Assembly (NCBI GenBank): GCA_008932965.1
Contig: WBXG01000041.1
Coordinates: 1-14,364 of the forward strand
Direction: 5' to 3'
Source of the DNA: Verrucomicrobiota bacterium
GTDB lineage: Bacteria; Verrucomicrobiota; Verrucomicrobiia; Chthoniobacterales; UBA6821
DNA: 14,364 bases
Below, piece by piece: positions 1 through 14,364 of the stretch; the stretch's first letter is position 1; each line of letters opens with the position of its first letter. Position numbers and translations under genes: made by a program. Below the pieces are notes generated by a model, which worked only from the letters and a program-made list of their open reading frames with translations, was not told where the DNA came from and ran no database searches.

Positions 1-1047
1 AAGCCCCTCATTAGCATCCTGCCTTACCTTATCTTCATCGGCTTCTTGGGCTTGTCTCCTAAGGGCCGCTCTAATTTCATCTGCGCTTAGCTCTTCTCCA
101 CCTGGTAGTAATTTACCAAATTGAAGTTTTACGTCATTCCTTCTAAAATCTGCTTCTAGTGCATCGTAATAGATCTTCCATAGATTTTCACCTTCTTCGA
201 AAATTCTCGTTTCATCGATCCTCTCCTGGAGCTCCTGACTCGATTCTTCCAATTGTTCCCGAGAACTTTCTGGAGAAAAAATTTCTGAACTTTGTTTTTG
301 GGTGTTAGAACCTTCACGTTGATTCAAAGAAAGATTCTTAAGTGTAGTGGTGAGTTCCTCCTCATCCCTCGATAATGAGCCTATGGGAGAAGGATTGGAG
401 CTAGCCTTTTCAGGTAGCATGGGGTGCTGAGGAGGAGGGGTCTGAGGATGTTGACGAAGCTCCGTCTCCCTATCTCGACCATGGAGGGTGAATCTTGTGC
501 CCTCTTCGATAGCGATTCCAAGCACTACAGACTCTAGGATCCACTCGATAATCTCATCCATTCCAGCTTCGAGAGCACTCTCCTCTAATCCCGATTGATA
601 GATCTCTGCTCCTGAAGCAGTGAGATCAAAAGTCAGAATATTAGATTGCAATGAGGGATCGACCTTGATCTCAGAGAAGGAATCCAAAATTCGAGAATGA
701 AGGCTAGGGGAGGAATCGGGATGACAACACCTGCTATAAAAAGCAGCCTCCTCCAAGCTGAGAGTTGCGAGGCATGCAGAAGAGCAATCCAGCTTGGAAA
801 TGAAATGATAGCAATAATCTCCAGGGGAACCTGTGCGTAAGATAGAATCACCGAGTATTTCAATAGCGTAGAGATTCCCGCAATAGCCTGATTCTTCAAA
901 AGCTGAAGTTTGATTCAAAAATTGAGAATACCTTTGAATGGTTATAGATTCTCGATCTCGGTTATTTACTTCATTTATCTGACTCACGAGATGAGTGCTA
1001 CCTAACCCAAGAAGGATGAGTAATGCAATAAAAAGGCGAAATTTCAT
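1..1047 (-). CDS. Hypothetical secreted protein, 3'-partial (C-terminus lies beyond the left edge; at least 349 aa). Absent from the supplied ORF track.
   Basis: Hand translation of the minus strand from the ATG at 1047-1045 gives 349 codons with no stop down to position 1. The N-terminus MKFRLFIALLILLGLGSTHLVSQINE looks like a Sec signal peptide (K/R n-region, hydrophobic core, no lipobox Cys). A Cys-rich block follows (GYCGNLY..DYCYHF..LDCSSACL..RCCH), then an acidic Pro/Ser-rich low-complexity segment (QHPQTPPPQHPMLPEKASSNPSP..), then an acidic helical part (ENLWKIYYDALEADFRRNDVKLQFGKLL..). I recognise no family. Confidence 0.7.
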   Translation of the reverse strand, partial: MKFRLFIALLILLGLGSTHLVSQINEVNNRDRESITIQRYSQFLNQTSAFEESGYCGNLYAIEILGDSILRTGSPGDYCYHFISKLDCSSACLATLSLEEAAFYSRCCHPDSSPSLHSRILDSFSEIKVDPSLQSNILTFDLTASGAEIYQSGLEESALEAGMDEIIEWILESVVLGIAIEEGTRFTLHGRDRETELRQHPQTPPPQHPMLPEKASSNPSPIGSLSRDEEELTTTLKNLSLNQREGSNTQKQSSEIFSPESSREQLEESSQELQERIDETRIFEEGENLWKIYYDALEADFRRNDVKLQFGKLLPGGEELSADEIRAALRRQAQEADEDKVRQDANEGL

Positions 1048-1149
1048 CGTCAGTAGGTAGTCTTTTATCTCTTTTTGAGTCAACTCATAAAATCGATACC
1101 TTATTAATTTTTCTGTTCACTCGATCCGCAAGAATGTATCAATGAGCCC

Positions 1150-1707
1150 ATGCGTCTTCTTATTGCTGGCACAGGGGCTAGTGGTTCTCTCTATCTACAA
1201 CGTTTCTTGCATCACTTAGATGGAAAAAGTCATGAGCTCCACTTGATTTTAAGTAGTTATGCTAAACAAGTGATTCATCAAGAAATCGGTGCTTTGAAAA
1301 TTCCCGAAGGAACGCAGTTTCATCAAGAAAAATCGATGACTGCTTCATGTGCAAGTGGGTCTGCTCTTTTTGATGCAATGATTGTGATTCCTTGCTCTAT
1401 GGGGACGGTTGGACGGATTGCTGCAGGAACGAGCGACTCACTTATTATTCGCTCCGCTGATGTTTTTTTAAAAGAACGTCGCAAGCTCATTCTTGTGGTT
1501 CGCGAAACCCCATGGAATCTCATTCAAGCTCGCAATATCGTGACTGTCATGGAGGCTGGAGCTTCAGTGCTTCCAGCAATGCCCTCCTTTTATAGTAACC
1601 CAAAAACATTCGAAGAATTAGCCGATACGGTTGTGTTTAGGGTTCTTGATCAGCTGGGAATCAATCTTAGTGAGGCCTACCGTTGGGGAGATATTTATCA
1701 AGAATGA
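1150..1707 (+). CDS. ubiX: Flavin prenyltransferase UbiX
   Basis: 185-aa ORF. N-terminal IAGTGASGS nucleotide-binding motif. Conserved UbiX/Pad1 blocks are present: VIPCSMGTVGRIAAGTSDSLIIRSADVFLKERRKLILVVRETP and PAMPSFYSNPKT..VVFRVLDQLGI. Confidence 0.9.
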   Translation: MRLLIAGTGASGSLYLQRFLHHLDGKSHELHLILSSYAKQVIHQEIGALKIPEGTQFHQEKSMTASCASGSALFDAMIVIPCSMGTVGRIAAGTSDSLIIRSADVFLKERRKLILVVRETPWNLIQARNIVTVMEAGASVLPAMPSFYSNPKTFEELADTVVFRVLDQLGINLSEAYRWGDIYQE

Positions 1708-2351
1708 CTCGAGAAACTTTTCTTGCTGCTCTTGCTGCACGGGTAGCTCGTATGCTTTTTAAAACGCTACGACTGAGTGTTGTTGACCATGCCGGATTTT
1801 TATCCAATCCGCTTGCAGTACCATCGATCATCACTTTCTGGCACAATCGTATTCCAGCCATTGCGGTAGGGTTTTTAAGAAAATATCATCATCGCCATCG
1901 TAAGGGGGTCGTTGTTCTTACAAGTCCCAGCAAAGATGGCGATATTCTCTCTGGAGTCATGGCCCGTCTTGGGATGGGCTCGGTGCGTGGATCTAGCTCG
2001 CGCCGTGGATCGACAGCTCTTCGTGAGCTCTCAGCAAAACTAGAAGAGGGTTATGATCTAGCTATTACACCAGATGGTCCTCGTGGCCCAAAATATTGCC
2101 TTGGACCTGGAGTGATTTTTTTAGCACAAAAGACAGGGGCTCCCATTTTACCTCTCCATGCTCGCTATCATTATGCTTTTCGATTGAAAACGTGGGATTC
2201 ATTTTCCATTCCCTTTCCTTTTTCTCGAGTTGATATTATTCTAGACCCTTCTATTACCATTGATCCTTCCCTCTCAGACCTAGAACCAGAACGCCTCAAA
2301 CTTGAACAACTTTTAAAAACAAACGCTCAACATTTCGATGATCCTTCTTGA
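1704..2351 (+). CDS. DUF374-domain protein (lysophospholipid acyltransferase family)
   Basis: DUF374-like signature: FWHNR...[38 protein letters not shown]...[11 protein letters not shown]...[15 protein letters not shown]. The track starts this ORF at a TTG (1683). I prefer the ATG at 1704-1706, which overlaps the ubiX TGA (1705-1707) as ATGA. Confidence 0.8.
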
Positions 2352-3216
2352 TGGAAAACAGACTGCTGCTTCTCTTGAAGCAGAAACACTAAAACGTATT
2401 GCCCAGCTTCAAAAACGTGGAATCACTCCCGGTCTTGCAGTCGTATTAATTGGCGAAAATCCAGCTTCGCAAGCCTATGTTCGAAACAAAGATCGCACCT
2501 GCTCAAGGCTCGGTATGCTTTCGCGTAAATTAGAACTCCCTGCAAGCACAACGCAAAAAGAGTTGTTAGAAGTCATCGATGAGCTCAATGAAGATCCGCT
2601 CATCCACGGTATTCTTGTTCAATCCCCACCTCCCTCTCATATCGATGAAAAAACCATTACTCTGGCGATTGATCCCAAAAAAGATGTTGATGGGTTCCAT
2701 CCAATCAACGTTGCAAAACTCGCTATGGATGACCCAACTGGATTTGTTCCTTGCACACCGCTGGGATGTCAGCACCTTCTAAAAGCCTATGATATTCGAA
2801 CACGTGGAGCCCATGTTGTGGTCGTAGGACGCAGTCTTATTGTTGGAAAGCCAATGGCTCTTTTACTTCTTCAAAAAGGTCTTGGTGGTGATGCCACTGT
2901 TACCATTGCTCATTCTCAAACGCGCGATCTAGCTGCAATCACCCGCAGTGCTGATATTGTTATTGCAGCACTCGGCCGAGCTCATGCTTTGGGGGCTGAG
3001 CATATTCGTGAAGGGGCTGTGGTGATAGATGTTGGTATCAATCGTATTGATGATGCTTCTAAACCCTGTGGATACAGGCTTGTCGGGGATGTTGACTTTG
3101 AATCTGTCAAAGAAAAATGCTATGCCATCACTCCGGTTCCCGGAGGTGTTGGTCCAATGACGATTGCGATGTTGATGCAAAATACTGTCACTGCTTGTGA
3201 AAGATTCACACAATAA
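2338..3216 (+). CDS. folD: Bifunctional methylenetetrahydrofolate dehydrogenase/cyclohydrolase FolD
   Basis: 292 aa. It begins [13 protein letters not shown] and contains [61 protein letters not shown] and [16 protein letters not shown], all typical FolD blocks. The start overlaps the upstream CDS by 14 nt. Confidence 0.95.
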
Positions 3217-3244
3217 CGCGCATGAGAACATTTTCTTTTACTCC

Positions 3245-3272
3245 TAGCCCGGATATTTCATGCTGAAATATC
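3245..3272. repeat. Terminus-like fragment of the element inserted in ribD. It forms a perfect 9-bp hairpin (GATATTTCA tgc TGAAATATC).
   Basis: 3245-3266 (tagcccggatatttcatgctga) matches the reverse complement of 13277-13298 at 21 of 22 positions. 3252-3260 and 3264-3272 are perfect inverted repeats with a 3-nt loop. It lies 29 nt after the folD stop, with no T-tract following. Confidence 0.6.
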
Positions 3273-3357
3273 ATGTGACTCTGTGCAAAGCCTATTAGTA
3301 TTGTCAAAGTGCTTAGAAATTACAGGAAAGAGCCTTTGAGATTCTATTTCTATCTTT

Positions 3358-4074
3358 GTGAACAAGACCTCCTCCTCATTTCCTAAAACTGCTGCCCTCA
3401 TTGTAGCTGGGGGATCGAGTCTTCGTTTTGGTGGTGATAAGTTAATGGCCTCTCTTCTAGGGAGACCGCTTATTACCTATAGCCTGCTAGCATTTGCTAA
3501 GACCTCCTTGATCTCTTCTATCATCCTTGTTGTTCCTTCCAAGCGAGAAGAGGAATTTCAAGGTGTGATAGATTCCTTAAATAATCCGAGACTCTCTGAG
3601 ATCATTCGTATTATTCCTGGGGGAGAGAGTCGTCATGCATCGGTACAACGTGGTCTTATCGCTCTATCGGATTCATGTGCCTTTGTTGCTATTCACGATG
3701 CTGCTCGCCCTCTTATTAAACAAGATCAGATCGAAGGAGTCTGCAAAGCAGCTTATAGTGTAGGAGCCGCAGCCTTAGCTCTTCCAGTTGCTGAAACACT
3801 ACACCGCAGTGATGCTAGCGGTTATGCCCAAGAAACAATCGATCGTCATCAACTTTGGTCAATGCAAACTCCTCAAGTCTTTCGTGTAAAGGAAATGCTT
3901 CGTATCATTCATGAAGATAAGAAATCACTTAGGATTCCCACCGATGAAGTATCTGCTTTGCTTTCGCATGGGATTAAAACGATGTTAATTGAGAATCGTG
4001 TTCCGAATATTAAAGTCACTTACCAAGAGGATCTCAGGCTTGTAAGGGCATCCTTAGAGAACTCTTCGCAATAA
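3358..4074 (+). CDS. ispD: 2-C-methyl-D-erythritol 4-phosphate cytidylyltransferase IspD
   Basis: 238 aa with a GTG start and no in-frame ATG nearby. Contains AALIVAGGSSLRFGGDK (the P-loop-like IspD motif), VVPS, IIPGGESRHASV, VAIHDAARPL and MQTPQVF. Confidence 0.9.
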   Translation: MNKTSSSFPKTAALIVAGGSSLRFGGDKLMASLLGRPLITYSLLAFAKTSLISSIILVVPSKREEEFQGVIDSLNNPRLSEIIRIIPGGESRHASVQRGLIALSDSCAFVAIHDAARPLIKQDQIEGVCKAAYSVGAAALALPVAETLHRSDASGYAQETIDRHQLWSMQTPQVFRVKEMLRIIHEDKKSLRIPTDEVSALLSHGIKTMLIENRVPNIKVTYQEDLRLVRASLENSSQ

Positions 4075-4092
4075 ATCCTGAAGCATTGTCAA

Positions 4093-4551
4093 CTACGTTA
4101 ATAGTCGCTGTACAAGTGCACTCAACTGACGTCCATCGGCTCGTCCTGCGGCCTTTGCTTGGGCTCCTTTCATCACTGCTCCCATTTGAGCCTTGGAGGT
4201 AGCACCGACTTCAGCGATCACCTCGCGCACAAGAAGTTCCATCTCGATTTCAGTAAGACTTTGAGGAAGGTAAGTTCTTAGGATTGCAATTTCTGTTTTT
4301 TCCTTCTCAGCAAGTTCAGGTCGGCCACCTTGCTCAAAGCTCATTACTGAATCCTCTCGTTGCTTGATCTGTTTACGCAATACTGCAGAAGTATCTTCTT
4401 CAGAGAGAGGAGTGGTTACGCCTCCCTTTTCAATAGCAGCATAGTTGAGTGCTGATTTTACCATCCGGAGTGTTCCTAACTTGAAAGCATCCTTGGCCTT
4501 CATTGCTTCTTTGAGGTCGCAATCAATTTGTTGTACAAGATTCATATTCAT
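4093..4551 (-). CDS. yqeY: GatB/YqeY domain-containing protein
   Basis: 152 aa. Contains L..DLKEAMKAKD..KLGTLRMVKSAL...LSEEDTSAVLRKQIKQREDS...GGRPELAEKEKTEIAILRTYLP...GATSKAQMGAVMK, the typical YqeY-family pattern. It is convergent with ispD across an 18-nt gap. Confidence 0.9.
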   Translation of the reverse strand: MNMNLVQQIDCDLKEAMKAKDAFKLGTLRMVKSALNYAAIEKGGVTTPLSEEDTSAVLRKQIKQREDSVMSFEQGGRPELAEKEKTEIAILRTYLPQSLTEIEMELLVREVIAEVGATSKAQMGAVMKGAQAKAAGRADGRQLSALVQRLLT

Positions 4552-4666
4552 AAAATTTTTTTATAGGAGGTAACAAGTTCTTTTGTTTTGAAAAAAAGCT
4601 TGAGTCCACATATTTCACACAAATCCATTACGGCTTGTGGATAGCTTATCATTACTGCGTGGGTCT

Positions 4667-4726
4667 CGAATTGTGATTTTAATTTAGCTGGTAGGGACCT
4701 CTACAGCCCGGCATCACAATCCTTCG
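4667..4726. repeat. Nested imperfect palindrome in the atpC-yqeY spacer
   Basis: The outer stem is ATTGTGAT (4670-4677) with ATCACAAT (4713-4720), plus 3 more bp (4667-4669 with 4724-4726) across a bulge. The inner stem is GCTGGTAG (4687-4694) with CTACAGC (4701-4707), with one bulged base and the loop ggacct. No T-tract on either strand. Confidence 0.5.
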
Positions 4727-4788
4727 CCCCTCTTGTACTAATGAACTGTGCACGGTGCCTCATGATACTTCAGTATAGAATATTCGAA

Positions 4789-5199
4789 TTAATGATGATG
4801 ACGTCTCTTCACACGGAGCTTTGCCAATGAGTGTAACAGGGATGACTGAACCAGTGCCACCTCCTCATGAGAGAGTGTTTGGTCTTTCAATTCTTTTTCC
4901 GCAAGAGCCACTGCTTTTTCTGCTGCATGTTCATCAATATCTGCTTCATCAATGGCCATTTCCGTCATGATGGAGACACGATCAGGTCGTACTTCTAAAA
5001 AACCTTCACCGACGGCCATGCGAAGTTCCTTTCCCCCTTGTTGGATACGTAATTCTCCAGGGACAATCTGAGTCATTAAACCAACATGCTGGGGTAAAAT
5101 TCCTAGCTCCCCATCCACTCCAGGTACGATGACCCCTTCTACTTCTGCTTGGTAGGCGAGTGCTTCAGGTGTGACAATTTCAAGGTGAAGGGTTGGCAT
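4789..5199 (-). CDS. atpC: F1 ATP synthase subunit epsilon
   Basis: 136 aa. It starts 3 nt after the atpD stop. LEIVTPE...VIVPGVDGELGILPQHVGLMTQIVPGELRI fits the epsilon beta-sandwich, followed by a helical C-terminal domain. Confidence 0.9.
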   Translation of the reverse strand: MPTLHLEIVTPEALAYQAEVEGVIVPGVDGELGILPQHVGLMTQIVPGELRIQQGGKELRMAVGEGFLEVRPDRVSIMTEMAIDEADIDEHAAEKAVALAEKELKDQTLSHEEVALVQSSLLHSLAKLRVKRRHHH

Positions 5200-5202
5200 A
5201 GT

Positions 5203-6724
<1,522 letters not shown>

Positions 6725-6750
6725 CTTGAAGATAAATGATAGACTCAATT

Positions 6751-7665
6751 TTAACCTAATGCCATCTGAGCAGTAGTGATTTCAAGGAGTTCTGTGGTGA
6801 TGCTTGCTTGGCGTGCTTTGTTATATTCGAGTGTAAGATCTTTAACTAGATTTTTGGCATTATCCGTTGCAGCTTTCATTGCCACCATACGAGCACTTTG
6901 TTCGGAAGCACGTTCATCAAGTATTTTTTGAAATACTTCGAAATGAAATGAGTAAGGAAGAATAGCATTAAGTACACTTTGAGTACTTGGTTCGAAAAGA
7001 TATTCTCCGATTTCACTACTCTCATTTTCCGAATCTTTTTCAGCTGTTATAGGACGTTCAAGGGAGGAGGAGGCATTAGGTGAGGGGACCATGCCATCAG
7101 CTTTTTCGATGCTAATAGGAAGCAACTGAAGATTCACTGGGCGTTGCACAAGGGTATTAATAAATTTTGGATAGAGGATATTCACTTGATCCACAGCTCC
7201 AGAAAGGAATTGTTCCAAACAAAATTGAGAGATCGGTTTGGTTTGTAAAAAAGCTGGATTATCAGGAAGCGTAAAGTCAGCAATCATCTGACGTCCTGTC
7301 CGAGCAAGGAAAGAGGCGCCTTTGCGACCTACAGCGACAAAAAGTGTGGTGGAGGTATCTAGCAATGATGCATCACGTAGCACATTCGTATTAAGTGCAC
7401 CGCACAATCCTTTGTCAGAAGTAAGCAAAATAACTAATGTTTTGTGGACATCTCTTTGTGCGAGTAGTGGATGAGATTCTTTATCCACATGGTCACGCAA
7501 GGAAACAAGCACTTCATTGAGCACCTCTGAATAAGGGCGTCCAGCCACGGCTGCCTGTTGCGCTCGACGCATCTTGGAGGCAGCCACCATCTCCATCGCC
7601 TTAGTGATTTGAGAGGTATTTTTGACCGACTTAATCCGTCGTCGAATATCGCGAGTGTTAGCCAT
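6751..7665 (-). CDS. atpG: F1 ATP synthase subunit gamma
   Basis: 304 aa. N-terminus MANTRDIRRRIKSVKNTSQITKAMEMVAASKMRRAQ and C-terminus LEYNKARQASITTELLEI are the conserved gamma coiled-coil ends. Contains DKGLCGALN. Confidence 0.95.
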   Translation of the reverse strand: MANTRDIRRRIKSVKNTSQITKAMEMVAASKMRRAQQAAVAGRPYSEVLNEVLVSLRDHVDKESHPLLAQRDVHKTLVILLTSDKGLCGALNTNVLRDASLLDTSTTLFVAVGRKGASFLARTGRQMIADFTLPDNPAFLQTKPISQFCLEQFLSGAVDQVNILYPKFINTLVQRPVNLQLLPISIEKADGMVPSPNASSSLERPITAEKDSENESSEIGEYLFEPSTQSVLNAILPYSFHFEVFQKILDERASEQSARMVAMKAATDNAKNLVKDLTLEYNKARQASITTELLEITTAQMALG

Positions 7666-7695
7666 GTGAGGAGTGAGTGAACCGTAATCGGAGTG

Positions 7696-7802
7696 TTGAA
7701 AGAAGAATCAACGCTGCTGTTTCTAGGTAACAATAAAATTATTTATTAATTTTTATAAAATGGAATGGAGAGAAAAAGATTCTAGGTCTCTTGAAAGAAG
7801 AA
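7696..7802 (-). repeat. Pair of 12-nt direct repeats in the atpA-atpG spacer, bracketing two copies of TTCTAGGT
   Basis: TTGAAAGAAGAA occurs at 7696-7707 and 7791-7802 (UUCUUCUUUCAA on the transcript). TTCTAGGT occurs at 7721-7728 and 7780-7787 (ACCUAGAA on the transcript). An A/T-only stretch lies between them at about 7733-7760. Confidence 0.6.
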
Positions 7803-7808
7803 GAGAGC

Positions 7809-9344
7809 TTAGGTGGTGACTGCTTTGAACTCATCAAGAGCATCCCCTAATTCCTTTTCTAAAGATGCATCAAATGCTTTTTTTGTTAGAATACTCAAAA
7901 GAACCGATTCCTTGCGTGTTGAGAGAAACTCTTCCATCTTTGCTTGAAATTCTTGAACTTGGTTCACTGGAACTTCATTGAAATATCCTTTTTGCATTGC
8001 CCAGAGAATAGCTGCTTGGAGTTCCACCGAAAGAGGTTTGTGTTGACCTTGTTTAAAAAGTTCTACGATACGCTGTCCACGATCCAGTTGAGACTTGGTA
8101 CGTGCATCAAGATCACTTCCAAATTGTGCAAAGGCTGCTAATTCACGATACTGCGCAAGATCACCTTTTAATTTACCAGCGACTTGTTTCATTGCTTTGA
8201 TTTGAGCTGCTGAACCAACACGAGAAACCGAAAGTCCTACAGAAATAGCAGGTCGAATTCCTTGGTAAAAAAGATCGGTCTCTAAATAAATCTGCCCATC
8301 AGTAATAGAAATGACATTGGTTGGAATATAGGCAGAAACATCACCGGCTTGTGTTTCAATAATAGGAAGTGCGGTGAGTGATCCATTACCTGCTTTTTCA
8401 CTCAGACGTGCAGAGCGCTCCAGTAAACGGCTATGCAGGTAGAAGACATCTCCTGGATAGGCTTCACGTCCTGAAGGACGTTTGAGCAATAGAGAAATTT
8501 GACGATACCCAACGGCATGCTTGGAAAGATCATCGAAAATAATTAATGCATCCATTCCATGATCCATGAACCACTCTCCCATAGCTGCTCCGGCAAAAGG
8601 TGAGATATATTGATCTGCAGCAGCATTGGAGGCAGTTGAAGAAATAATAATCGTATACTTGAGCGCATCGTGTTGTTCAAGAGCATTAATAACTCGAGCC
8701 ACATTAGCGACACGTTGACCAATAGCCACGTAGATCGAGTAGAGAGGACGGAACTGTGGGTCCCCACTTTCCTCTCCTACACGGTTGATTCGTGCTTGGT
8801 TAATAATGGTATCAATAGCAATGGTAGTTTTTCCTGTGGCACGGTCACCGATGATTAATTCACGTTGACCACGTCCGATAGGAACCATGGCATCAATCGA
8901 CATAATCCCTGTTTGTACCGGCTGTGAAACTCCTTGGCGCTTGATGATTCCAGGAGCAATTTTTTCCACAGGATAGAATTCTTCATTTCCTAATTCCCCT
9001 TTGCCATCTACTGGACGACCTAATGCATCGACAACACGACCCAATAATTTTTTTCCAACAGGAACTTGAAGTAAGCGTCCCGTTGTCGTGACCTCATCTC
9101 CTTCGCTAATTTTGGTATAGTCCCCTAAAATAATGGCACCAACTTCGGTTTCCTCAAGGTTGAGAGCTAATCCGTAAATGCCTCCAGGAAATTGCAACAT
9201 TTCATTGAGCATGACGCTACTGAGTCCCTCAATGCGAGCAACCCCATCACCAATTTCTCGGACGATACCAACATTGGTTTTTGTAACGTTGGAGGAACGA
9301 AGAGAGCCGATTTTCTGTTCTAATTCTTGTAAAAGAGTACTCAT
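7809..9344 (-). CDS. atpA: F1 ATP synthase subunit alpha
   Basis: 511 aa. Contains Walker [53 protein letters not shown] and ITDGQIYLE. Confidence 0.98.
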
Positions 9345-9396
9345 ATCAAAAGTGATGGGTTAAAAGGTTAAAAAGGTGAAAGCGTTATGAAAAAGA

Positions 9397-9783
9397 CTAT
9401 ATATTGTTTAATTGATGAAGTTTTGCAGAGATGCTTCCATCCCAAACGTCACTTCCAAGACGAATGCGAGTACCGCCGAGAAGGGAAGGATTCACGATTA
9501 TTGAAACATCAACTTGATCGTCACGAGACTGAAGTGCAGTAATGATCTCCGCTTGGGAGGAAGGTTCCAGGGGTGTTGCACTTTCCACAATAGCTTGATG
9601 AGCATTCAGCTGTAATCGGGTGAGGCGTGTGAATTCTTTGAGAATTTCAAAAGCAGCACGTGGTCGTTTTGAAACAAGTGTCTCAGCAATGATGAGGCTC
9701 CTAGAGTGATCCAGCCGGCCATTGACTAAAGATGCATCAAAAAGTTGGCGTGCTTGCCTTTTAGCCTCACGGGAAAGTTTCAT
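9397..9783 (-). CDS. atpH: F1 ATP synthase subunit delta (OSCP), unusually short at 128 aa
   Basis: It sits between atpF and atpA. The C-terminal half (AIVESATPL...VDVSIIVNPSLLGGTRIRLGSDVWDGSISAKLHQL) matches the conserved delta/OSCP C-terminal domain. The ATG lies 3 nt after the atpF stop, so no upstream extension is possible. Confidence 0.75.
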   Translation of the reverse strand: MKLSREAKRQARQLFDASLVNGRLDHSRSLIIAETLVSKRPRAAFEILKEFTRLTRLQLNAHQAIVESATPLEPSSQAEIITALQSRDDQVDVSIIVNPSLLGGTRIRLGSDVWDGSISAKLHQLNNI

Positions 9784-9786
9784 AAA

Positions 9787-10299
9787 TTATGAAGTAGCTA
9801 ATGCAGAGGTTGTCTCCATAGAAAGGCGCTGTTGATCTTCAGGAGAGATGATTTTACCTACTACTTGAGATGTTGTCTGTACCACAAGATGTAACATCTC
9901 TTTTTTTACATCATCGATCATATGTTGACGATCGAGCATGGTGACTTCATGAGCTCGTGCAATAATACTTTCTGCATCTTTAATTGCTCGTTGTGTCTCC
10001 TTGGTCATCAATGCTTCTGCGGAGACCCGAGCTTCATCGATCATTTTTTTTGCATCTAAATTCGCTTTGCGAAGAATTTCTTCATAGCGTAATTCTGCTT
10101 CAGCCAGTTGTTTTTTGATTTTCTCTGCATTGAGCTGTGCCTCTTCAATGCGTCGACGACGCTCTTCTAGCATGGTAATGACCGAGGCAAAGGCAAAACG
10201 ACGAAGGATTAAATAGACAACAAGAAAAAGAATTGTTTGGGCTAAAAATTTAGGCCAATCAATACCGAAATTTTCAAATAGATCAGTGAGTACTTTCAT
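9787..10299 (-). CDS. atpF: Fo ATP synthase subunit b
   Basis: 170 aa. It has a single N-terminal TM helix (FLAQTILFLVVYLILRRF) followed by a long charged helix (EERRRRIEEAQLNAEKIKKQLAEAELRYEE...). Operon position is correct for atpF. Confidence 0.85.
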   Translation of the reverse strand: MKVLTDLFENFGIDWPKFLAQTILFLVVYLILRRFAFASVITMLEERRRRIEEAQLNAEKIKKQLAEAELRYEEILRKANLDAKKMIDEARVSAEALMTKETQRAIKDAESIIARAHEVTMLDRQHMIDDVKKEMLHLVVQTTSQVVGKIISPEDQQRLSMETTSALATS

Positions 10300-10322
10300 T
10301 CAAAAAGGAAGTTCAGGAGTTC

Positions 10323-10479
10323 AAAAGTTTAGTAGTTTAGGGGAGAATTAATTTGGAAAAACGGATTCTTATTAGCTTGAAAAAGTTTTTTAAAATCATT
10401 CATGTCATCAATGATGCTGAAGTTGATTTTTAGAGAAAAAAGTTTTCTCACCCCTAAACATCTAAAAATCTAAACTTTT
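10323..10479 (-). repeat. Imperfect palindrome filling the atpE-atpF spacer (about 23 bp of pairing around a 97-nt interior)
   Basis: AAAAGTTTAG (10323-10332) is the perfect reverse complement of CTAAACTTTT (10470-10479). GTTTAGGGGAGAA (10335-10347) pairs with TTCTCACCCCTAAAC (10445-10459) with a 2-nt bulge. The outer arm abuts the atpE stop codon (10480-10482). Confidence 0.6.
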
Positions 10480-10707
10480 TTATTGGCCAGCGAAGGCACG
10501 AATGAGCGCATAAATCGCGATCGATTCAGCAAGAGCCATCCCGATAATCGCTAGCGTGAGCACGCGACCAAAGGAACCTGGGTTGCGACCAATGGCCTCA
10601 ACGGCTTTAGCACCAATAAAACCGATGCTTAATGCAGCACCTGTTCCGGCTACACCAAGGGTGAAACTACCAGTAATGCCTTCAGCTAATAATGTTGGAA
10701 TAGTCAT
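10480..10707 (-). CDS. atpE: Fo ATP synthase subunit c (75 aa)
   Basis: MTIPTLLAEGITGSFTLGVAGTGAALSIGFIGAKAVEAIGRNPGSFGRVLTLAIIGMALAESIAIYALIRAFAGQ is a two-helix hairpin with an RNP loop and the essential carboxylate (AES). The track ORF extends to 10770, but those extra 21 codons (..GRTHTHNTHISI) come from a CA-repeat tract. I use the ATG at 10707. Confidence 0.9.
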   Translation of the reverse strand: MTIPTLLAEGITGSFTLGVAGTGAALSIGFIGAKAVEAIGRNPGSFGRVLTLAIIGMALAESIAIYALIRAFAGQ

Positions 10708-10713
10708 AATAGA

Positions 10714-10738
10714 TATGTGTGTGTTGTGTGTATGTGTT
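10714..10738 (-). promoter_or_regulatory. CA-repeat tract (TG-rich on the plus strand) immediately upstream of the atpE start
   Basis: The transcript reads ..acgaacacauacacacaacacacacauaucuauu-AUG, with no SD. A short complementary run ACACACAC (plus strand 10878-10885) lies at the other end of the 221-nt atpB-atpE spacer. Confidence 0.5.
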
Positions 10739-10928
10739 CGTCCTTGGTTGCACGGTAAGCACAATCCCAAGAATAAAAATGTTTGTTGATCCTATTTGGA
10801 GTTCACAGGTACTGCAAGCAAGTACGATGGGACTAATGGAAATAAAACTATCGTGTTTATGATGACACTCTAATTTTACACACACCTGACTTTTCGTTCT
10901 TCTTTTAGTTTTGCGACCTTAAAGAATT

Positions 10929-11783
10929 CTAATGGTTCTCTGCTTCCTCCTCATCATGACTCGTAGAGAGATTTAGATAAACAGCGCAGAGAAGAGTAAA
11001 AACGAAGGCTTGAAGCGCTCCAATGAGAAGCTCCAAAAAATAAAATGGGATTGGTAAAATAATGCTGGTGAGTTTTGCAAGCCATAACGGAAAATGGAGT
11101 GTGTGCCCCATGGACATCATGGTGTTGATTAAATTTTCACCAGCAAACACATTTCCAAAGAGCCGTAGAGAGAGAGAAACAGGGCGAATCAGTATGGAAA
11201 TGACTTCAATGATTCCTACGAAAAAAAAGATGGGCATTAGTGAATAAGCCATGATTCCTTTTACTCCTCCTTTAACTCCAAAAATATGTTGAAGAAAAGA
11301 GACGACCCCAACTTCCTGTAATGTCCAGATAAGCCAAAAAATCATGAAGACAATAGCCAGTCCGATGGTTGTGTTCATATCTGCAGTAGTAGGTCGTAAT
11401 AGTGGTAAGAGTTCCCCATTGGCTTCCTTCCAGCCAATAGATCCTACACCGGGAAGTAGACCAAACCAGTTTGCTGCCAGAATATAGAGGAAGAGAGCTG
11501 CTAAAAGACTAAAGGCTTTAGGAATCATATGTTTTCCCACAATTCCTTCAAAAAAGTCATATAAACTAGAAATGATAAACTCAAAAAAGTTTTGCATTCC
11601 AACAGGGATCAATTGCATGCGACGTGTCGATCGCTGTGCCCAGTAAACAATGGCAATAACTAACAAGGCCGATACGAGAATGGAATTAGTGAGCCAAGAT
11701 TGGGTTGTCCATTCTTTAACTGCCTTAGCAAAAATTGGCTCCGCTTCAATAGGAACAATAGATGCGAGAGGTAATAAATACAT
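10929..11783 (-). CDS. atpB: Fo ATP synthase subunit a
   Basis: 284 aa and polytopic. It carries the conserved LSLRLFGNVFAGE motif with the essential Arg and is the first gene of the operon. Confidence 0.95.
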   Translation of the reverse strand: MYLLPLASIVPIEAEPIFAKAVKEWTTQSWLTNSILVSALLVIAIVYWAQRSTRRMQLIPVGMQNFFEFIISSLYDFFEGIVGKHMIPKAFSLLAALFLYILAANWFGLLPGVGSIGWKEANGELLPLLRPTTADMNTTIGLAIVFMIFWLIWTLQEVGVVSFLQHIFGVKGGVKGIMAYSLMPIFFFVGIIEVISILIRPVSLSLRLFGNVFAGENLINTMMSMGHTLHFPLWLAKLTSIILPIPFYFLELLIGALQAFVFTLLCAVYLNLSTSHDEEEAENH

Positions 11784-11847
11784 GTGAGAATTCTAGGTCC
11801 GAAATATATTCGTGTAGGCTCAAAACTGAGAAAGTTAAAGGGTGATA

Positions 11848-11876
11848 CTTATACTTGGAATCATATCTTAATGCAA
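11848..11876 (-). promoter_or_regulatory. Candidate sigma70-like promoter for the atp operon
   Basis: The minus strand reads TTGCAT, then 17 nt, then TATAAG, about 65 nt upstream of the atpB ATG. This is a by-eye match only. The -35 is weak, and the organism may not use canonical sigma70 consensus. Confidence 0.25.
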
Positions 11877-11920
11877 GATCCATTTTTAATAAAATAAGCA
11901 GCCTCAATATCTGATGCTTG

Positions 11921-11949
11921 TTGATAAAACGAGATGCTGTCGCTACAAA
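11921..11949 (+). promoter_or_regulatory. Candidate sigma70-like promoter for ribD
   Basis: TTGATA (11921-11926), then 17 nt, then TACAAA (11944-11949), about 55 nt upstream of the ribD ATG. An alternative (TTGATC, 16 nt, TATTTA) lies about 40 nt further downstream. By-eye match only. Confidence 0.25.
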
Positions 11950-12002
11950 AGATAATAGTCGATTTGATCGTCAAATGATTATGAATATTTATTTACTGAA
12001 GC

Positions 12003-13388
12003 ATGCAATCATTAGCTCCACAGGAACTTCAAATAAGACCTAAACTAACCACAAGTGAAATAGATGCTCTTTTGATGCAAGTGGCCCTCAAAGAAGCAAA
12101 AAAAGGAGAGGGTAAAACAGCTCCAAATCCCCTAGTTGGAGCAGTTATTGCTCGAGATGGAGAAATGCTCTCCTCGGGCTATCATGCCAAAGCAGGCTCC
12201 CTTCATGCCGAGATAGAAGCCCTACGGCATTTGAAATGCATTTCAGATGCTTGCGGAGCAACCCTCTATGTGACCCTCGAACCATGTTCAACTTTTGGGA
12301 AGACTTCTCCTTGCACTAAGGCAATCATCGATGCAGGGGTGAAACGCGTCGTCTATGGAGCCACCGATCCTAACCCACTTCATCAAGGAGAGGCTGAGAA
12401 AATTCTGAGTGCAGCAGGTATTGAGGTTGTGACGGGTGTTTTGACTAAAGAATGCCAAGAGCTTAACAAACATTGGAATCACCGCATGCAAACAGGATTG
12501 CCGTGGGTGATTGCTAAATATGGAATGTCACTGGATGGCCGTATTTCTTCGTTTCCAGGTCGTCGTTGGATCACCTCTGAAAAAAGCCGTCGTGATGCGA
12601 TGCGCCTGCGTGCCCAAGTCGAAGCGATTCTGGTTGGTGGTGGAACGATTCGAGATGATGATCCCTCACTCACACTACGCGGTCTTTCAAAAAAAGAGAG
12701 GCCCTTCTCTCAACCTTGGAGGATTGTTTGGAGTCGCTCTGGAGATATACCTCGCAGCGCCCAAGTTTTAACGGATAAGGAGTGTTCAAAAACAATAGTA
12801 TTAACAGAGAGGTCCTTGCGTAGAGCCCTTCAAGATCTTGCAGAACGTGGAATCAGCTCGGTCTTAATCGAGGGAGGGGGACGCACCTTAGGGGAAGCAT
12901 TTGATAAGCATCTCGTCGATGAAGTTCGTTTCTATGTTGCTCCCATCATGATTGGAGGGCCGGTCTTGGCTGTCGGTGGAATCGGTTACCAAAAGGGAAG
13001 AAGGCTAACCCAGGTATTTCATAATGATCATTTGCGGAGATCGGCAAGCCAGATGGATACTGTGCCCAAGTTCGAAGTCTTATTCGGGCAGTGTGTACAC
13101 ACAGAGCCCTTGTCAAAATACGTGTCTGCGTTGACTCGCTCACTCCCGCTCGTTTCGCCTTTTCAGAGCTGCCTAAAGGAAGTGGAAGTGCAAGTGGAAG
13201 TGGAAATGGAAGTCTCCCCTGAGGAGCCCCGACTACCGGTGGTGCCCCATCAGCCTTCGCGGTCTCCTCGTCACAATCAGTATGAAATATCCGGGCTAAC
13301 ATCTGTTTCCTACAGGATGCTCGGAGAGGATCTTGTGATCTCTGGATTAGTAAAAAAATTTCCTAATAATTCCCTGCCCGAAAAATAA
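12003..13388 (+). CDS. ribD: Bifunctional riboflavin biosynthesis deaminase/reductase RibD, carrying an in-frame insertion of about 97 codons near the C-terminus
   Basis: The deaminase zinc motifs HAEIEAL and TLEPCSTFGKTSPC are present. Reductase-domain blocks are present: PWVIAKYGMSLDGRI, WITSEKSRRDAMRLRAQVEAILVGGGTIRDDDPSLT, VLIEGGGRTLGEAF, DEVRFYVAPIMIGG and the terminal YRMLGEDLVISG. At 461 aa it is longer than the roughly 360-370 aa of canonical RibD. The excess maps to 13009-13295. There is also a possible N-terminal extension of about 20 aa relative to E. coli and B. subtilis RibD, and there is no alternative ATG before M25. Confidence 0.9.
   Translation: MQSLAPQELQIRPKLTTSEIDALLMQVALKEAKKGEGKTAPNPLVGAVIARDGEMLSSGYHAKAGSLHAEIEALRHLKCISDACGATLYVTLEPCSTFGKTSPCTKAIIDAGVKRVVYGATDPNPLHQGEAEKILSAAGIEVVTGVLTKECQELNKHWNHRMQTGLPWVIAKYGMSLDGRISSFPGRRWITSEKSRRDAMRLRAQVEAILVGGGTIRDDDPSLTLRGLSKKERPFSQPWRIVWSRSGDIPRSAQVLTDKECSKTIVLTERSLRRALQDLAERGISSVLIEGGGRTLGEAFDKHLVDEVRFYVAPIMIGGPVLAVGGIGYQKGRRLTQVFHNDHLRRSASQMDTVPKFEVLFGQCVHTEPLSKYVSALTRSLPLVSPFQSCLKEVEVQVEVEMEVSPEEPRLPVVPHQPSRSPRHNQYEISGLTSVSYRMLGEDLVISGLVKKFPNNSLPEK
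13009..13295 (+). mobile_element. MITE-like non-autonomous element inserted in-frame in ribD (boundaries uncertain by a few nt)
   Basis: The terminal inverted repeats are 13009-13028 (cccaggtatttcataatgat) and 13276-13295 (atcagtatgaaatatccggg). They are 17/20 complementary, with a perfect 9-bp core (13015-23 and 13281-89). Weaker subterminal complementarity (about 17/24, one gap) continues inward. The direct repeat GGCTAAC occurs at 13003-13009 and 13294-13300, exactly 291 nt (97 codons) apart. There is no stop in the ribD frame. Hand-counted G+C is about 53%, visibly higher than the flanks. Internally there is a 12-bp palindrome GTGTGTACACAC (13091-13102) and a hexamer repeat. Confidence 0.6.
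13178..13213 (+). repeat. Imperfect tandem hexamer repeat (GGAAGT)x6 inside the ribD insertion
   Basis: The sequence is gga agt gga agt gca agt gga agt gga aat gga agt. In the ribD frame it reads EVEVQVEVEMEV. Confidence 0.8.
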
Positions 13389-13389
13389 G

Positions 13390-13429
13390 AAAAAGAGGAA
13401 GCCCAGCTCCTTCTCTTTTTGTGTTTTTT
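13390..13429 (+). terminator. Candidate intrinsic terminator after ribD
   Basis: It lies directly after the TAA. AAAAAGAG (13390-97) is the perfect complement of CTCTTTTT (13413-20). An alternative imperfect stem is GAGGAAG / CTCCTTC. The T-rich run TCTTTTTGTGTTTTTT follows. The stem is weak and A/T-rich. Confidence 0.4.
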
Positions 13430-13494
13430 AAGAGCACTATGAGATAAAGCAACTTGATTAAATCACGATAACCTTAGAACATCTGGACCTTTTC

Positions 13495-14364
13495 ATGCGT
13501 ATTCTTTCTGGCATTCAACCCTCGGGTACTCTGCATCTAGGGAATTACTTCGGGATGATGCGTCCGGCTATTGAGCTTCAGGATCGTGGGGAGGCTTTTT
13601 ATTTCATCGCCGATTATCATGCTTTAACATCGCTTCATGATGCTTCTATATTAAGAAAGAACGTGCATGAGGTTGCCATTGATTTTTTGGCTGCAGGATT
13701 AGACCCCAAGAAAAGTTGTTTTTTTCGACAAAGTGATATCGTCGGCATTACAGAACTTTCGTGGATTTTAACTACCGTTGCACCCATGGGTCTCCTAGAG
13801 CGTTGCCATTCTTACAAAGACAAAGTTGCTAAAGGTCTCTCTGCCTCAGTGGGGCTCTTTTCGTATCCTATTTTAATGGCGGCCGATATTTTAATTTATG
13901 AGAGTGATCTGGTTCCAGTCGGTAAAGACCAGAAGCAACATGTGGAAGTAGCTCGTGATTTAGCGGTGAAGATGAACGAAACCTACGGTCCTCTTTTAAA
14001 GCTTCCGGAGGCAAAAATTCAGGAGGCATCTGCTCTGGTTCCTGGTCTTGATGGAGCTAAAATGAGCAAGAGCTATGGAAATACTATTGAACTTTTTTTA
14101 GATGAATCTGCAATGCGTAAAAAAGTGATGTCGATCAAGACCGATTCTTCTTCCGTTGAGGATCCCAAGTCGATCGAAGATTCGGTCATTTTGGAACTCT
14201 ATGCCCATGTCGCTTCTCCAGCTCATTACGCAGCCATGAAGAATGCTTTTCTTGCAGGAGGAAGCGGTTATGGGTTTTTTAAAAAACAACTTTTTGAAGC
14301 TATTTGGGAATACTTAGCCCCTCTTCGAGCAAGGCGTGAAGAGCTTCTCCGTGACCCTGGCTAT
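13495..14364 (+). CDS. trpS: Tryptophan--tRNA ligase, 3' end beyond the right edge (290 codons in window). Absent from the supplied ORF track.
   Basis: Hand translation from the ATG at 13495 has no stop to the window end. It reads MRILSGIQPSGTLHLGNYFG (HIGH-type motif) ... YPILMAADILIYESDLVPVGKDQKQHVEVARD ... GAKMSKSYGN (KMSKS). This is the class-I TrpRS pattern. Confidence 0.95.
   Translation, partial: MRILSGIQPSGTLHLGNYFGMMRPAIELQDRGEAFYFIADYHALTSLHDASILRKNVHEVAIDFLAAGLDPKKSCFFRQSDIVGITELSWILTTVAPMGLLERCHSYKDKVAKGLSASVGLFSYPILMAADILIYESDLVPVGKDQKQHVEVARDLAVKMNETYGPLLKLPEAKIQEASALVPGLDGAKMSKSYGNTIELFLDESAMRKKVMSIKTDSSSVEDPKSIEDSVILELYAHVASPAHYAAMKNAFLAGGSGYGFFKKQLFEAIWEYLAPLRARREELLRDPGY

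Follow-up and report, generated by a model that had tools for sequence, protein, structure and literature searches.

Why should a gene for riboflavin biosynthesis carry almost a hundred codons that its closest relatives lack? The question is raised by the ribD gene of a Verrucomicrobiota bacterium (Chthoniobacterales, UBA6821), which lies in a stretch of 14,364 nucleotides (assembly GCA_008932965.1, contig WBXG01000041.1, positions 1 to 14,364 of the forward strand) that is referred to below, at its full length, as the window. The answer proposed here, with considerable confidence, is that a transposable element of the miniature inverted-repeat type (MITE), with ends of the type found on insertion sequences (ISs) of the IS1380 family, inserted in frame into ribD, where it is most likely translated as a disordered loop of about 97 residues in a RibD that remains functional. 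An original prediction, made from the letters of the window, had proposed a mobile palindromic repeat tolerated in a surface loop near the C-terminus of RibD; this proposal is supported by the existence of a multi-copy family, by terminal inverted repeats (TIRs), by target-site duplications (TSDs), and by the absence of the segment from orthologues. The gene and the parts of the element are as follows:

12003 to 13388, plus strand: ribD, coding sequence of the bifunctional deaminase/reductase, 461 amino acids including the insert (from the list of open reading frames (ORFs) and their translations).
13005 to 13008, plus strand: left copy of the TSD, CTAA, within Leu-Thr codons (CTA A..), from the family-wide analysis of flanks.
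13009 to 13295, plus strand: the MITE, of the long class, 287 nt, which with one copy of the TSD makes 291 nt, or 97 codons (approximately residues 336-432).
13009 to 13029, plus strand: left TIR, CCCAGGTATTTCATAATGATC, with three mismatches to the consensus CCCGGATATTTCATACTGATC.
13091 to 13102, no strand: palindrome of 12 nt, GTGTGTACACAC, which marks the apex of the hairpin that the whole ancestral element formed and corresponds to the middle of the hairpin of the short-class consensus.
13142 to 13244, plus strand: internal module of the long class, missing in the 176-nt class and encoding ...ALTRSLPLVSPFQ...
13178 to 13213, plus strand: hexamer expansion of six GGAAGT-like units, EVEVQVEVEMEV, within the long-class module, specific to this copy and preserving the frame.
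13275 to 13295, plus strand: right TIR, AATCAGTATGAAATATCCGGG, with one mismatch to the consensus CCCGGATATTTCATACTGATC.
13296 to 13299, plus strand: right copy of the TSD, CTAA, from the same flank analysis.
12946 to 13302, minus strand: antisense ORF of 118 amino acids spanning the insert, a by-product of a minus-strand family frame that is often free of stops.

The excess is readily seen in the protein. Pfam recognises two domains, one of the cytidine-deaminase type (dCMP_cyt_deam_1, residues 20-119) and RibD_C (residues 167-337), and has no match on the 97-residue insert. Alignments with the nine, and then with the 70, nearest homologues (330-402 amino acids) found the block, located between ...VGGIGYQKGRR and LTSVSYRMLG..., in the window RibD only, which bears out the claim that the gene is some 97 codons too long. 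In the alignment with B. subtilis RibD (2b3z), the closest solved structure, the insertion falls immediately ahead of the last 27 or so residues of that chain. The additional translation begins with TQVFH and ends with EISGL; its predicted tryptic peptides are FEVLFGQCVHTEPLSK, SLPLVSPFQSCLK, and LPVVPHQPSR, with HNQYEISGLTSVSYR as a junction peptide. In the DNA, the extra 291 nt consist of the 287-nt element at 13009-13295 and the duplicated CTAA, and deletion in silico of 13009-13299 gives ...GGIGYQKGRRLTSVSYRMLGEDLVISGLV... and a protein of 364 amino acids with the junction ...QKGRRLTSVSYR..., as had been foreseen for the removal of the element and one copy of its flanking repeat. The insert had also been described as G+C-rich; its measured value, 0.52, is barely above that of the remainder of ribD (0.46-0.50) and is distinct only with respect to the downstream DNA (0.42).

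One could suppose that the 97 residues are an old, lineage-specific loop or domain of RibD, or that they result from a chimeric assembly. Nothing beyond the open frame itself speaks for this, and the probability left to it is negligible: the block is absent from 70/70 of the nearest homologues, and conservation of the segment among distant RibDs was seen in none of the other orthologues examined; scores of intergenic repeats, with TIRs and TSDs of their own, are homologous to its DNA; and at least nine contigs, from different samples in ENA, JGI, and NCBI, show the junctions of the insert in independent assemblies. The old loop or domain and the chimera are therefore both refuted.

What kind of DNA, then, is the insert? 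The TIRs announced around it are present, with inverted arms of 23 nt (13006-13028 and 13276-13298) that are 83% complementary, and an 18-nt probe for the ends finds two sites in the window where 0.02 would be expected by chance. The hexamer repeat and the 12-bp palindrome also proved to be where the original prediction had seen them. A direct repeat of seven nucleotides, GGCTAAC, had been taken as resembling a TSD; it does occur at 13003 and 13294, 291 nt apart, but the flanks across the family show that the real duplication is the 4-nt CTAA; the GG and C beyond it belong to the TIR on one side and to the host on the other. With a profile of the long class from which the window copy had been left out, nhmmer gives a match at 13006-13299 (E 1e-50). 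The short-class profile matches only 13006-13141 and 13245-13299, skipping 13142-13244, which is therefore a module specific to the long class. In an alignment of copies, other long copies have between zero and two hexamer units at the position of the expansion. Folding of the whole ribD element as RNA, one of the checks that had been proposed, gave an ordinary stability relative to shuffled sequences (z = -1.24).

The ribD insert belongs to a family of near-palindromic MITEs, and this family is very abundant in the Chthoniobacterales (Verrucomicrobiota). From the fetched loci, 101 distinct paired copies were retrieved, with the end consensus CCCGGATATTTCATACTGATC and its complement. The main size class is of 176 nt, and its consensus forms an almost perfect hairpin of 186 nt, flanks included (-166 kcal/mol); the second class, of 257-294 nt, has the additional internal module and counts the ribD copy (287 nt) among its members. 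A blastn search with the 298-nt ribD region found full and partial copies throughout the fetched contigs, the others being 69-77% identical, and nine copies were used for the multiple alignment of the element. The original prediction depended on the termini recurring elsewhere, and they do so in the 101 paired copies: the species itself and genomes related to it contain many, sharing TIRs and target duplications. The contigs L001-L007, which belong to the species of the window and encode RibDs that differ from the window RibD by at most one residue, carry family copies too. In one of them, L002, 14.9 kb contain five copies, or about one per 3 kb, and the window has three copies or pieces.

Scanning one genome per species for CAGTATGAAATATNCGGG gave at least 86 loci and, among the matches listed, nearly all were from four Chthoniobacterales/'Spartobacteria' genome bins; two genome bins have no fewer than 65 and 63 family pieces, respectively, in their sampled loci. 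Twelve single matches to the pattern in unrelated taxa contained no family sequence in a search with the profile hidden Markov model. In its small size (287 nt), its want of a transposase gene (Pfam being blank on the translated insert), its TIRs and TSD, and its many copies per genome, the element has the attributes of a MITE.

A search with the translated insert also matched short 'hypothetical proteins', eight in number, encoded in genome bins of Verrucomicrobia (two bins account for two each), and several of the matched ORFs begin in the end of one copy of the repeat and extend into the start of the next. These public entries (P0121-P0128, e.g., at L009 10001-10324 and L011 1050-1466), of 54-162 amino acids, lie on repeat copies and are most likely annotation artefacts arising from a repeat frame that is often open. 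Tandem pairs of MITEs that have one 4-nt YTAR spacer in common were observed at L011 1005-1457, L029 4167-4522, L035 5246-5685, L042 2931-3385, and L076 6500-6863, a hint that one copy inserted into the target that an earlier copy had duplicated.

The flanks of the copies indicate how the family chooses its targets. They consist of 4 nt, namely TTAA, CTAG, CTAA, or TTAG. Among the 98 copies that could be scored, 58 have identical 4-mers, of which 48 are palindromic and 10 are not (CTAA six times, TTAG three times, and GTAA once), and flanks related solely by inversion were found in 0/98. Given 10 identical non-palindromic pairs and none that is only inverted, the flanks are a genuine 4-bp TSD at YTAR. 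No strong extended preference was found outside YTAR, where there is only a weak enrichment of GGG/CCC that tandem copies account for. A duplication of TA of the IS630 type was ruled out, because the non-palindromic 4-mers repeat directly.

Which transposase might recognise such ends? When pairs of ends with a spacing of 0.8-2.6 kb and a long ORF between them were looked for, a candidate emerged in a Pedosphaerales genome bin (L026 4916-6716), an element of 1801 nt with ends identical to those of the MITE and with CTAG flanks. Its ORF is a transposase of the IS1380 family (Pfam DDE_Tnp_1_4, 3e-97; NCBIfam NF033539, 244 bits for a cutoff of 180). Relatives of this transposase were taken from metagenome contigs (80 loci, L100-L179), and these yielded a further 38 IS candidates of 1.7-2.1 kb with CCCGGATATTTCATAC-type ends and YTAR flanks, some of these flanks being direct pairs that are not palindromic (CTAA..CTAA and TTAG..TTAG, for instance). 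The sources of this clade are soil, peat, and freshwater metagenomes. Autonomous elements with matching ends thus exist in the form of L026 and the 38 candidates, outside the MITE-bearing genomes. IS5, which the YTAR target had favoured as the partner, was dropped since the elements with the same ends encode IS1380-family transposases. YTAR flanks on a clade of the IS1380 family deserve a remark, the motif being usually quoted for IS5. Judged by its termini and flanks, the MITE uses the ends and the target of this IS1380-family clade, and a transposase of the family would be what mobilises it.

Empty sites and polymorphism, as expected of a MITE, are on record. The ribD genes of L098 and L099 have clean, uninterrupted homologous codons, and the copy adjacent to atpC in the window varies between populations. 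One check named in the original prediction was whether close relatives lack the 97 residues at exactly the GGCTAAC site; they are indeed absent from all orthologues examined, but the nearest of these (P0002, encoded in L008) keeps a trace. About 15 nt of the right end of the element remain there in frame (DKISG-LT), as can be seen by setting GAT AAA ATA TCC GGC TTA ACG of L008 against TAT GAA ATA TCC GGG CTA ACA at the right junction in the window, and the L008 RibD is one residue longer in this loop than the other relatives. There is also a solo MITE end directly 3' of the L008 ribD stop codon (L008 2640-2733). From these letters, the L008 site is read as the probable footprint of an element and not as a naive empty site. 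Such a footprint could stem from an element of the common ancestor, most of which was lost afterwards by an in-frame deletion, or from a second insertion at this site that was itself subsequently lost.

How can so long an insertion leave a gene open? ribD reads into the element at offset 2, in a frame that lacks stops in 51% of the short copies and in 22% of the long ones, as does the matching minus-strand frame in 41% and 26%, respectively; the remaining frames are stop-free in 0-13% of short and long copies. These commonly open frames explain both the open ribD frame and the antisense ORF of 118 amino acids. The chance of such an open frame had been put at about 1%, which is right for random sequence (about 1.3% at 52% G+C) but not for this family, in which the baseline is 22% or 51% according to class. 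The length of the element plus TSD is divisible by three in 61/101 copies, although shared ancestry means that these are not independent events, and the dominant sizes plus TSD are all multiples of three (176 + 4 = 180, 257 + 4 = 261, 266 + 4 = 270, and 287 + 4 = 291).

The ribD copy is one instance among several, since 15/101 copies lie inside ORFs that run through them. In-frame, stop-free copies occur at the following positions of the fetched loci:

L049 3796-3971: in pheT.
L046 3871-4046: in glnD.
L036 292-548: in a gene for a class-A penicillin-binding protein (PBP).
L042 5006-5181: in a gene for a low-molecular-weight phosphatase.
L057 276-451 (Kiruna_bin-02438): in a gene for a PMT glycosyltransferase.

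According to Pfam, the pheT copy sits between the tRNA-binding and B3_4 domains, the glnD copy between the HD and ACT domains, and the PBP copy between the transglycosylase and transpeptidase domains; the domain match of the phosphatase is split in two around its copy, and in the PMT glycosyltransferase gene and an acyl-CoA-dehydrogenase-like gene, the match lies on one side of the copy only. Alignment to a solved PheT structure confirms the pheT case, with 64 residues in excess exactly at the position of the element. When the intragenic copies were excised in silico, all nine that could be tested (at least 60 codons on each side) proved to be frame-preserving, and none disrupts its gene. This is the pattern expected if selection removes disruptive insertions.

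The same pattern bears on another possibility, raised in the original prediction for the RNA level, namely that the insert is removed or skipped; this might happen as a self-splicing intron, as an intein, or by ribosomal bypassing between the duplicated CTA codons. The identical CTA-A on both flanks and the ability of the ends of the element to pair are compatible with this. Splicing or bypass would, however, tolerate stops and frameshifts and would not need every testable intragenic copy to be in frame and stop-free. Nor was a known structured RNA, including a group I or II intron, found: Rfam is blank at the gathering threshold over the whole window, and a permissive scan of 12850-13450 had as its best and only match with E <= 1 a plant miRNA model (E 0.28). 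The fold energy is ordinary, as stated above. Neither an N-terminal Cys or Ser nor a C-terminal His-Asn of the kind found in inteins is present in the insert (TQVFH...EISGL), on which Pfam has no Hint or intein domain. Removal or bypass is thus unsupported and very improbable, and the in-frame MITE, most likely translated, is to be preferred.

What state is RibD in with the insert? AlphaFold, given an alignment of 71 sequences, models most of the core with a confidence (pLDDT) of more than 90; the values drop to less than 50 at residues 327-427 and return to about 90 in the two C-terminal strands of the terminal hairpin (432-440 and 443-450). The insert is accordingly predicted by the model to be disordered, with the RibD core and the C-terminal hairpin intact. 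In the 71-sequence RibD alignment, the invariant columns, which by construction are kept in the window protein, include the HAE and PC...C motifs of the deaminase. With respect to the nearest orthologue (L008, 79% identity), the ratio of nonsynonymous to synonymous substitution rates (dN/dS) is 0.19 over the 326 codons upstream of the insert and 0.05 over the 32 codons that follow it. Four alleles from numerous samples all encode 461 amino acids and vary at three positions, and ribD with the insert has accumulated no frameshifts or stops. The seven contigs of the species that were fetched (L001-L007) agree at every base of the 298-nt region that surrounds the insert. Taken together, the model of core and hairpin, the dN/dS values, the alleles, and the motifs speak for expression of the gene through the insert and for its continued selection.

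The only serious rival supposes that the MITE inactivated or crippled ribD, that the open frame is fortuitous, and that riboflavin comes from another copy of the gene or from uptake. About 25 kb of the genome is covered, so a second, uninterrupted ribD could lie elsewhere; 22% of long-class copies are stop-free in the ribD frame regardless; and the insert is some 30 residues from the C-terminus, inside the reductase fold. An inactivated gene would, however, hardly be reconciled with a dN/dS of 0.05 past the insert, with the retention of the invariant columns and their catalytic motifs (the definition of these columns being borne in mind), with the uniform length of the four alleles and their three substitutions, or with the frame-preserving nature of the 9/9 testable copies, which points to continuing selection on the host genes. 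Inactivation is therefore considered unlikely.

Other points weigh against a functional RibD translated through an IS1380-derived insert. We infer the translation of the insert and the activity of RibD from sequence and from a structural model. The MITE and the IS have just their terminal 16-18 nt in common. The IS1380-family partner was not found in the MITE-rich bins searched, being seen in other Verrucomicrobia and in environmental contigs; an all-against-all megablast of the fetched loci, made for a resident IS, gave orthologous regions only, and pairs of ends 600-3500 nt apart in these bins were ordinary genes bracketed by MITEs, with no IS. No MITE copies were found beside the metagenomic ISs, whose contigs are short. 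The match of the L026 transposase to the NCBIfam profile extends over no more than about 70% of it, and the enzyme is possibly defective. Finally, the open frames of the family and its lengths divisible by three could be chance properties of a master copy, to which a rough joint estimate gives a slim probability.

If the in-frame MITE is accepted, the course of events might be as follows. An IS1380-family DDE transposase, acting in trans, would recognise the terminal repeats of about 16-21 nt (CCCGGATATTTCATAC...) and would insert the element at a YTAR tetranucleotide, which it would duplicate. In ribD, this target would have been the CTAA within the Leu-Thr codons CTA ACA, ahead of the final beta-hairpin of the reductase domain, and the element would have landed in an orientation and frame in which the family is commonly stop-free. 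Since 291 nt are exactly 97 codons and the frame has no stop, translation most likely continues straight through; it would add a probably disordered surface loop of about 97 residues, after which the native C-terminal hairpin would resume. Selection would then purge disruptive insertions, and frame-compatible copies alone would persist in genes.

Two further pieces of the family are found in the window:

4601 to 4792, no strand: second copy, of the short class and decayed (nhmmer E 1e-16), with a TTAA flank (4789-4792) that includes the stop codon of atpC.
3244 to 3317, no strand: remnant between folD and ispD, consisting of CTAG, an intact left TIR CCCGGATATTTCATGCTG, and a fused fragment of a right TIR.

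The first of these is polymorphic, the version in L001 and L002, of the same species, being about 55 nt longer and less decayed. It was observed that atpC is called with 100 amino acids in L001 and L002 (L001 2898-3200) and with 136 in the window (4789-5199) and in L003. The second piece (nhmmer E 2e-5; a blastn match of the 22/22-nt class) is the footprint of a copy that was nearly wholly deleted.

In-frame fusions caused by intragenic MITEs have been described for the Rickettsia palindromic elements (RPEs), ERIC, QMITE1, and MITEs of Anabaena (PMC10969869). The RPEs, which the original prediction had named as the comparator, are an apt one, given the near-perfect 186-nt hairpin of the consensus and the in-frame copies in pheT, glnD, and the class-A PBP gene. 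As far as the work of Ogata et al. (2000, 2002) is summarised in PMC10969869, RPEs too are short palindromic repeats in many copies, a sizeable fraction of which lie in frame and stop-free in unrelated housekeeping genes whose products tolerate the added peptide in their fold; recurrent in-frame insertion into unrelated protein genes is likewise seen here, in the 15/101 copies within run-through ORFs. In contrast to RPEs, the Chthoniobacterales family has clear TIRs, a 4-bp YTAR duplication, and an identifiable type of transposase (IS1380); it measures 176-294 nt as opposed to roughly 100-150 nt for RPEs; and it resides in environmental Verrucomicrobia, not in obligate intracellular Alphaproteobacteria. 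The likeness claimed is a functional one only, and sequence homology is not to be expected.

With other bacterial MITEs that have in-frame copies (ERIC, QMITE1 of Coxiella, and those of Anabaena; PMC10969869, PMC5896051, PMC3184786), the family has in common that it is non-autonomous, multi-copy, and hairpin-forming, with TIRs, a TSD, and occasional fusions to ORFs. It differs from them in its host clade, in being apparently undescribed, and in its unusually high local density (L002). Searches of the literature for a MITE described from Verrucomicrobia or Chthoniobacterales, or for one derived from IS1380, gave nothing relevant, and neither this family nor an IS1380-derived MITE in Verrucomicrobia was found to be described.

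Among ISs, IS1247 of the IS1380 family has 1672 bp, 16-bp inverted repeats, and 5-bp direct repeats (PMC3281130). The clade of 1.7-2.1 kb with NF033539/PF13701 transposases carries the terminal CCCGGATATTTCATAC of the MITE and its YTAR flanks, whereas the ribD element is without a transposase and resembles these ISs in the terminal 16-18 nt only. IS5 has 5'-YTAR-3' as its target and TSD (PMC5009759). The family resembles both IS5 and IS711 (PMC2266754) in its YTAR target, and IS5 also in duplicating 4 bp, but the ends of the MITE and the transposase associated with them are those of the IS1380 family. The resemblance to the IS5 target may be either convergent or due to a distant relatedness.

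What does this mean for the organism and for the family? An apparently undescribed family behaves as RPEs and other MITEs are known to behave, and in-frame events of this kind are already known in other bacteria. Taken alone, the ribD case is unremarkable, a surface-loop insertion that is tolerated; the behaviour of the family is of more interest, with its high density, its repeated in-frame copies in essential genes, and its identifiable system of transposition. For annotation, the consequences are that intergenic copies are labelled as 'hypothetical proteins' and that host proteins are reported as 60-97 amino acids too long. Few routes allow a bacterial protein to grow by tens of residues in one step, and the in-frame insertion of a MITE is among them. 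To our knowledge, RPEs, the best-studied case, have no known transposition machinery; the Chthoniobacterales family, with its readable ends, its defined YTAR target, and its candidate transposase family, makes the process experimentally tractable.

The family may even be adapted to coding regions, as its frames and lengths hint. It could be an independent, free-living counterpart of the RPEs: a palindromic MITE derived from IS1380 whose dominant forms were shaped to be compatible with coding, which spreads through essential genes (ribD, pheT, glnD, and the class-A PBP gene) as translated, disordered loops, and which is a recurrent source of new protein segments. This idea is put forward tentatively, as possible rather than probable. 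Were it true, the family would be a recurrent supplier of new segments to the proteins of its hosts and not merely tolerated junk.

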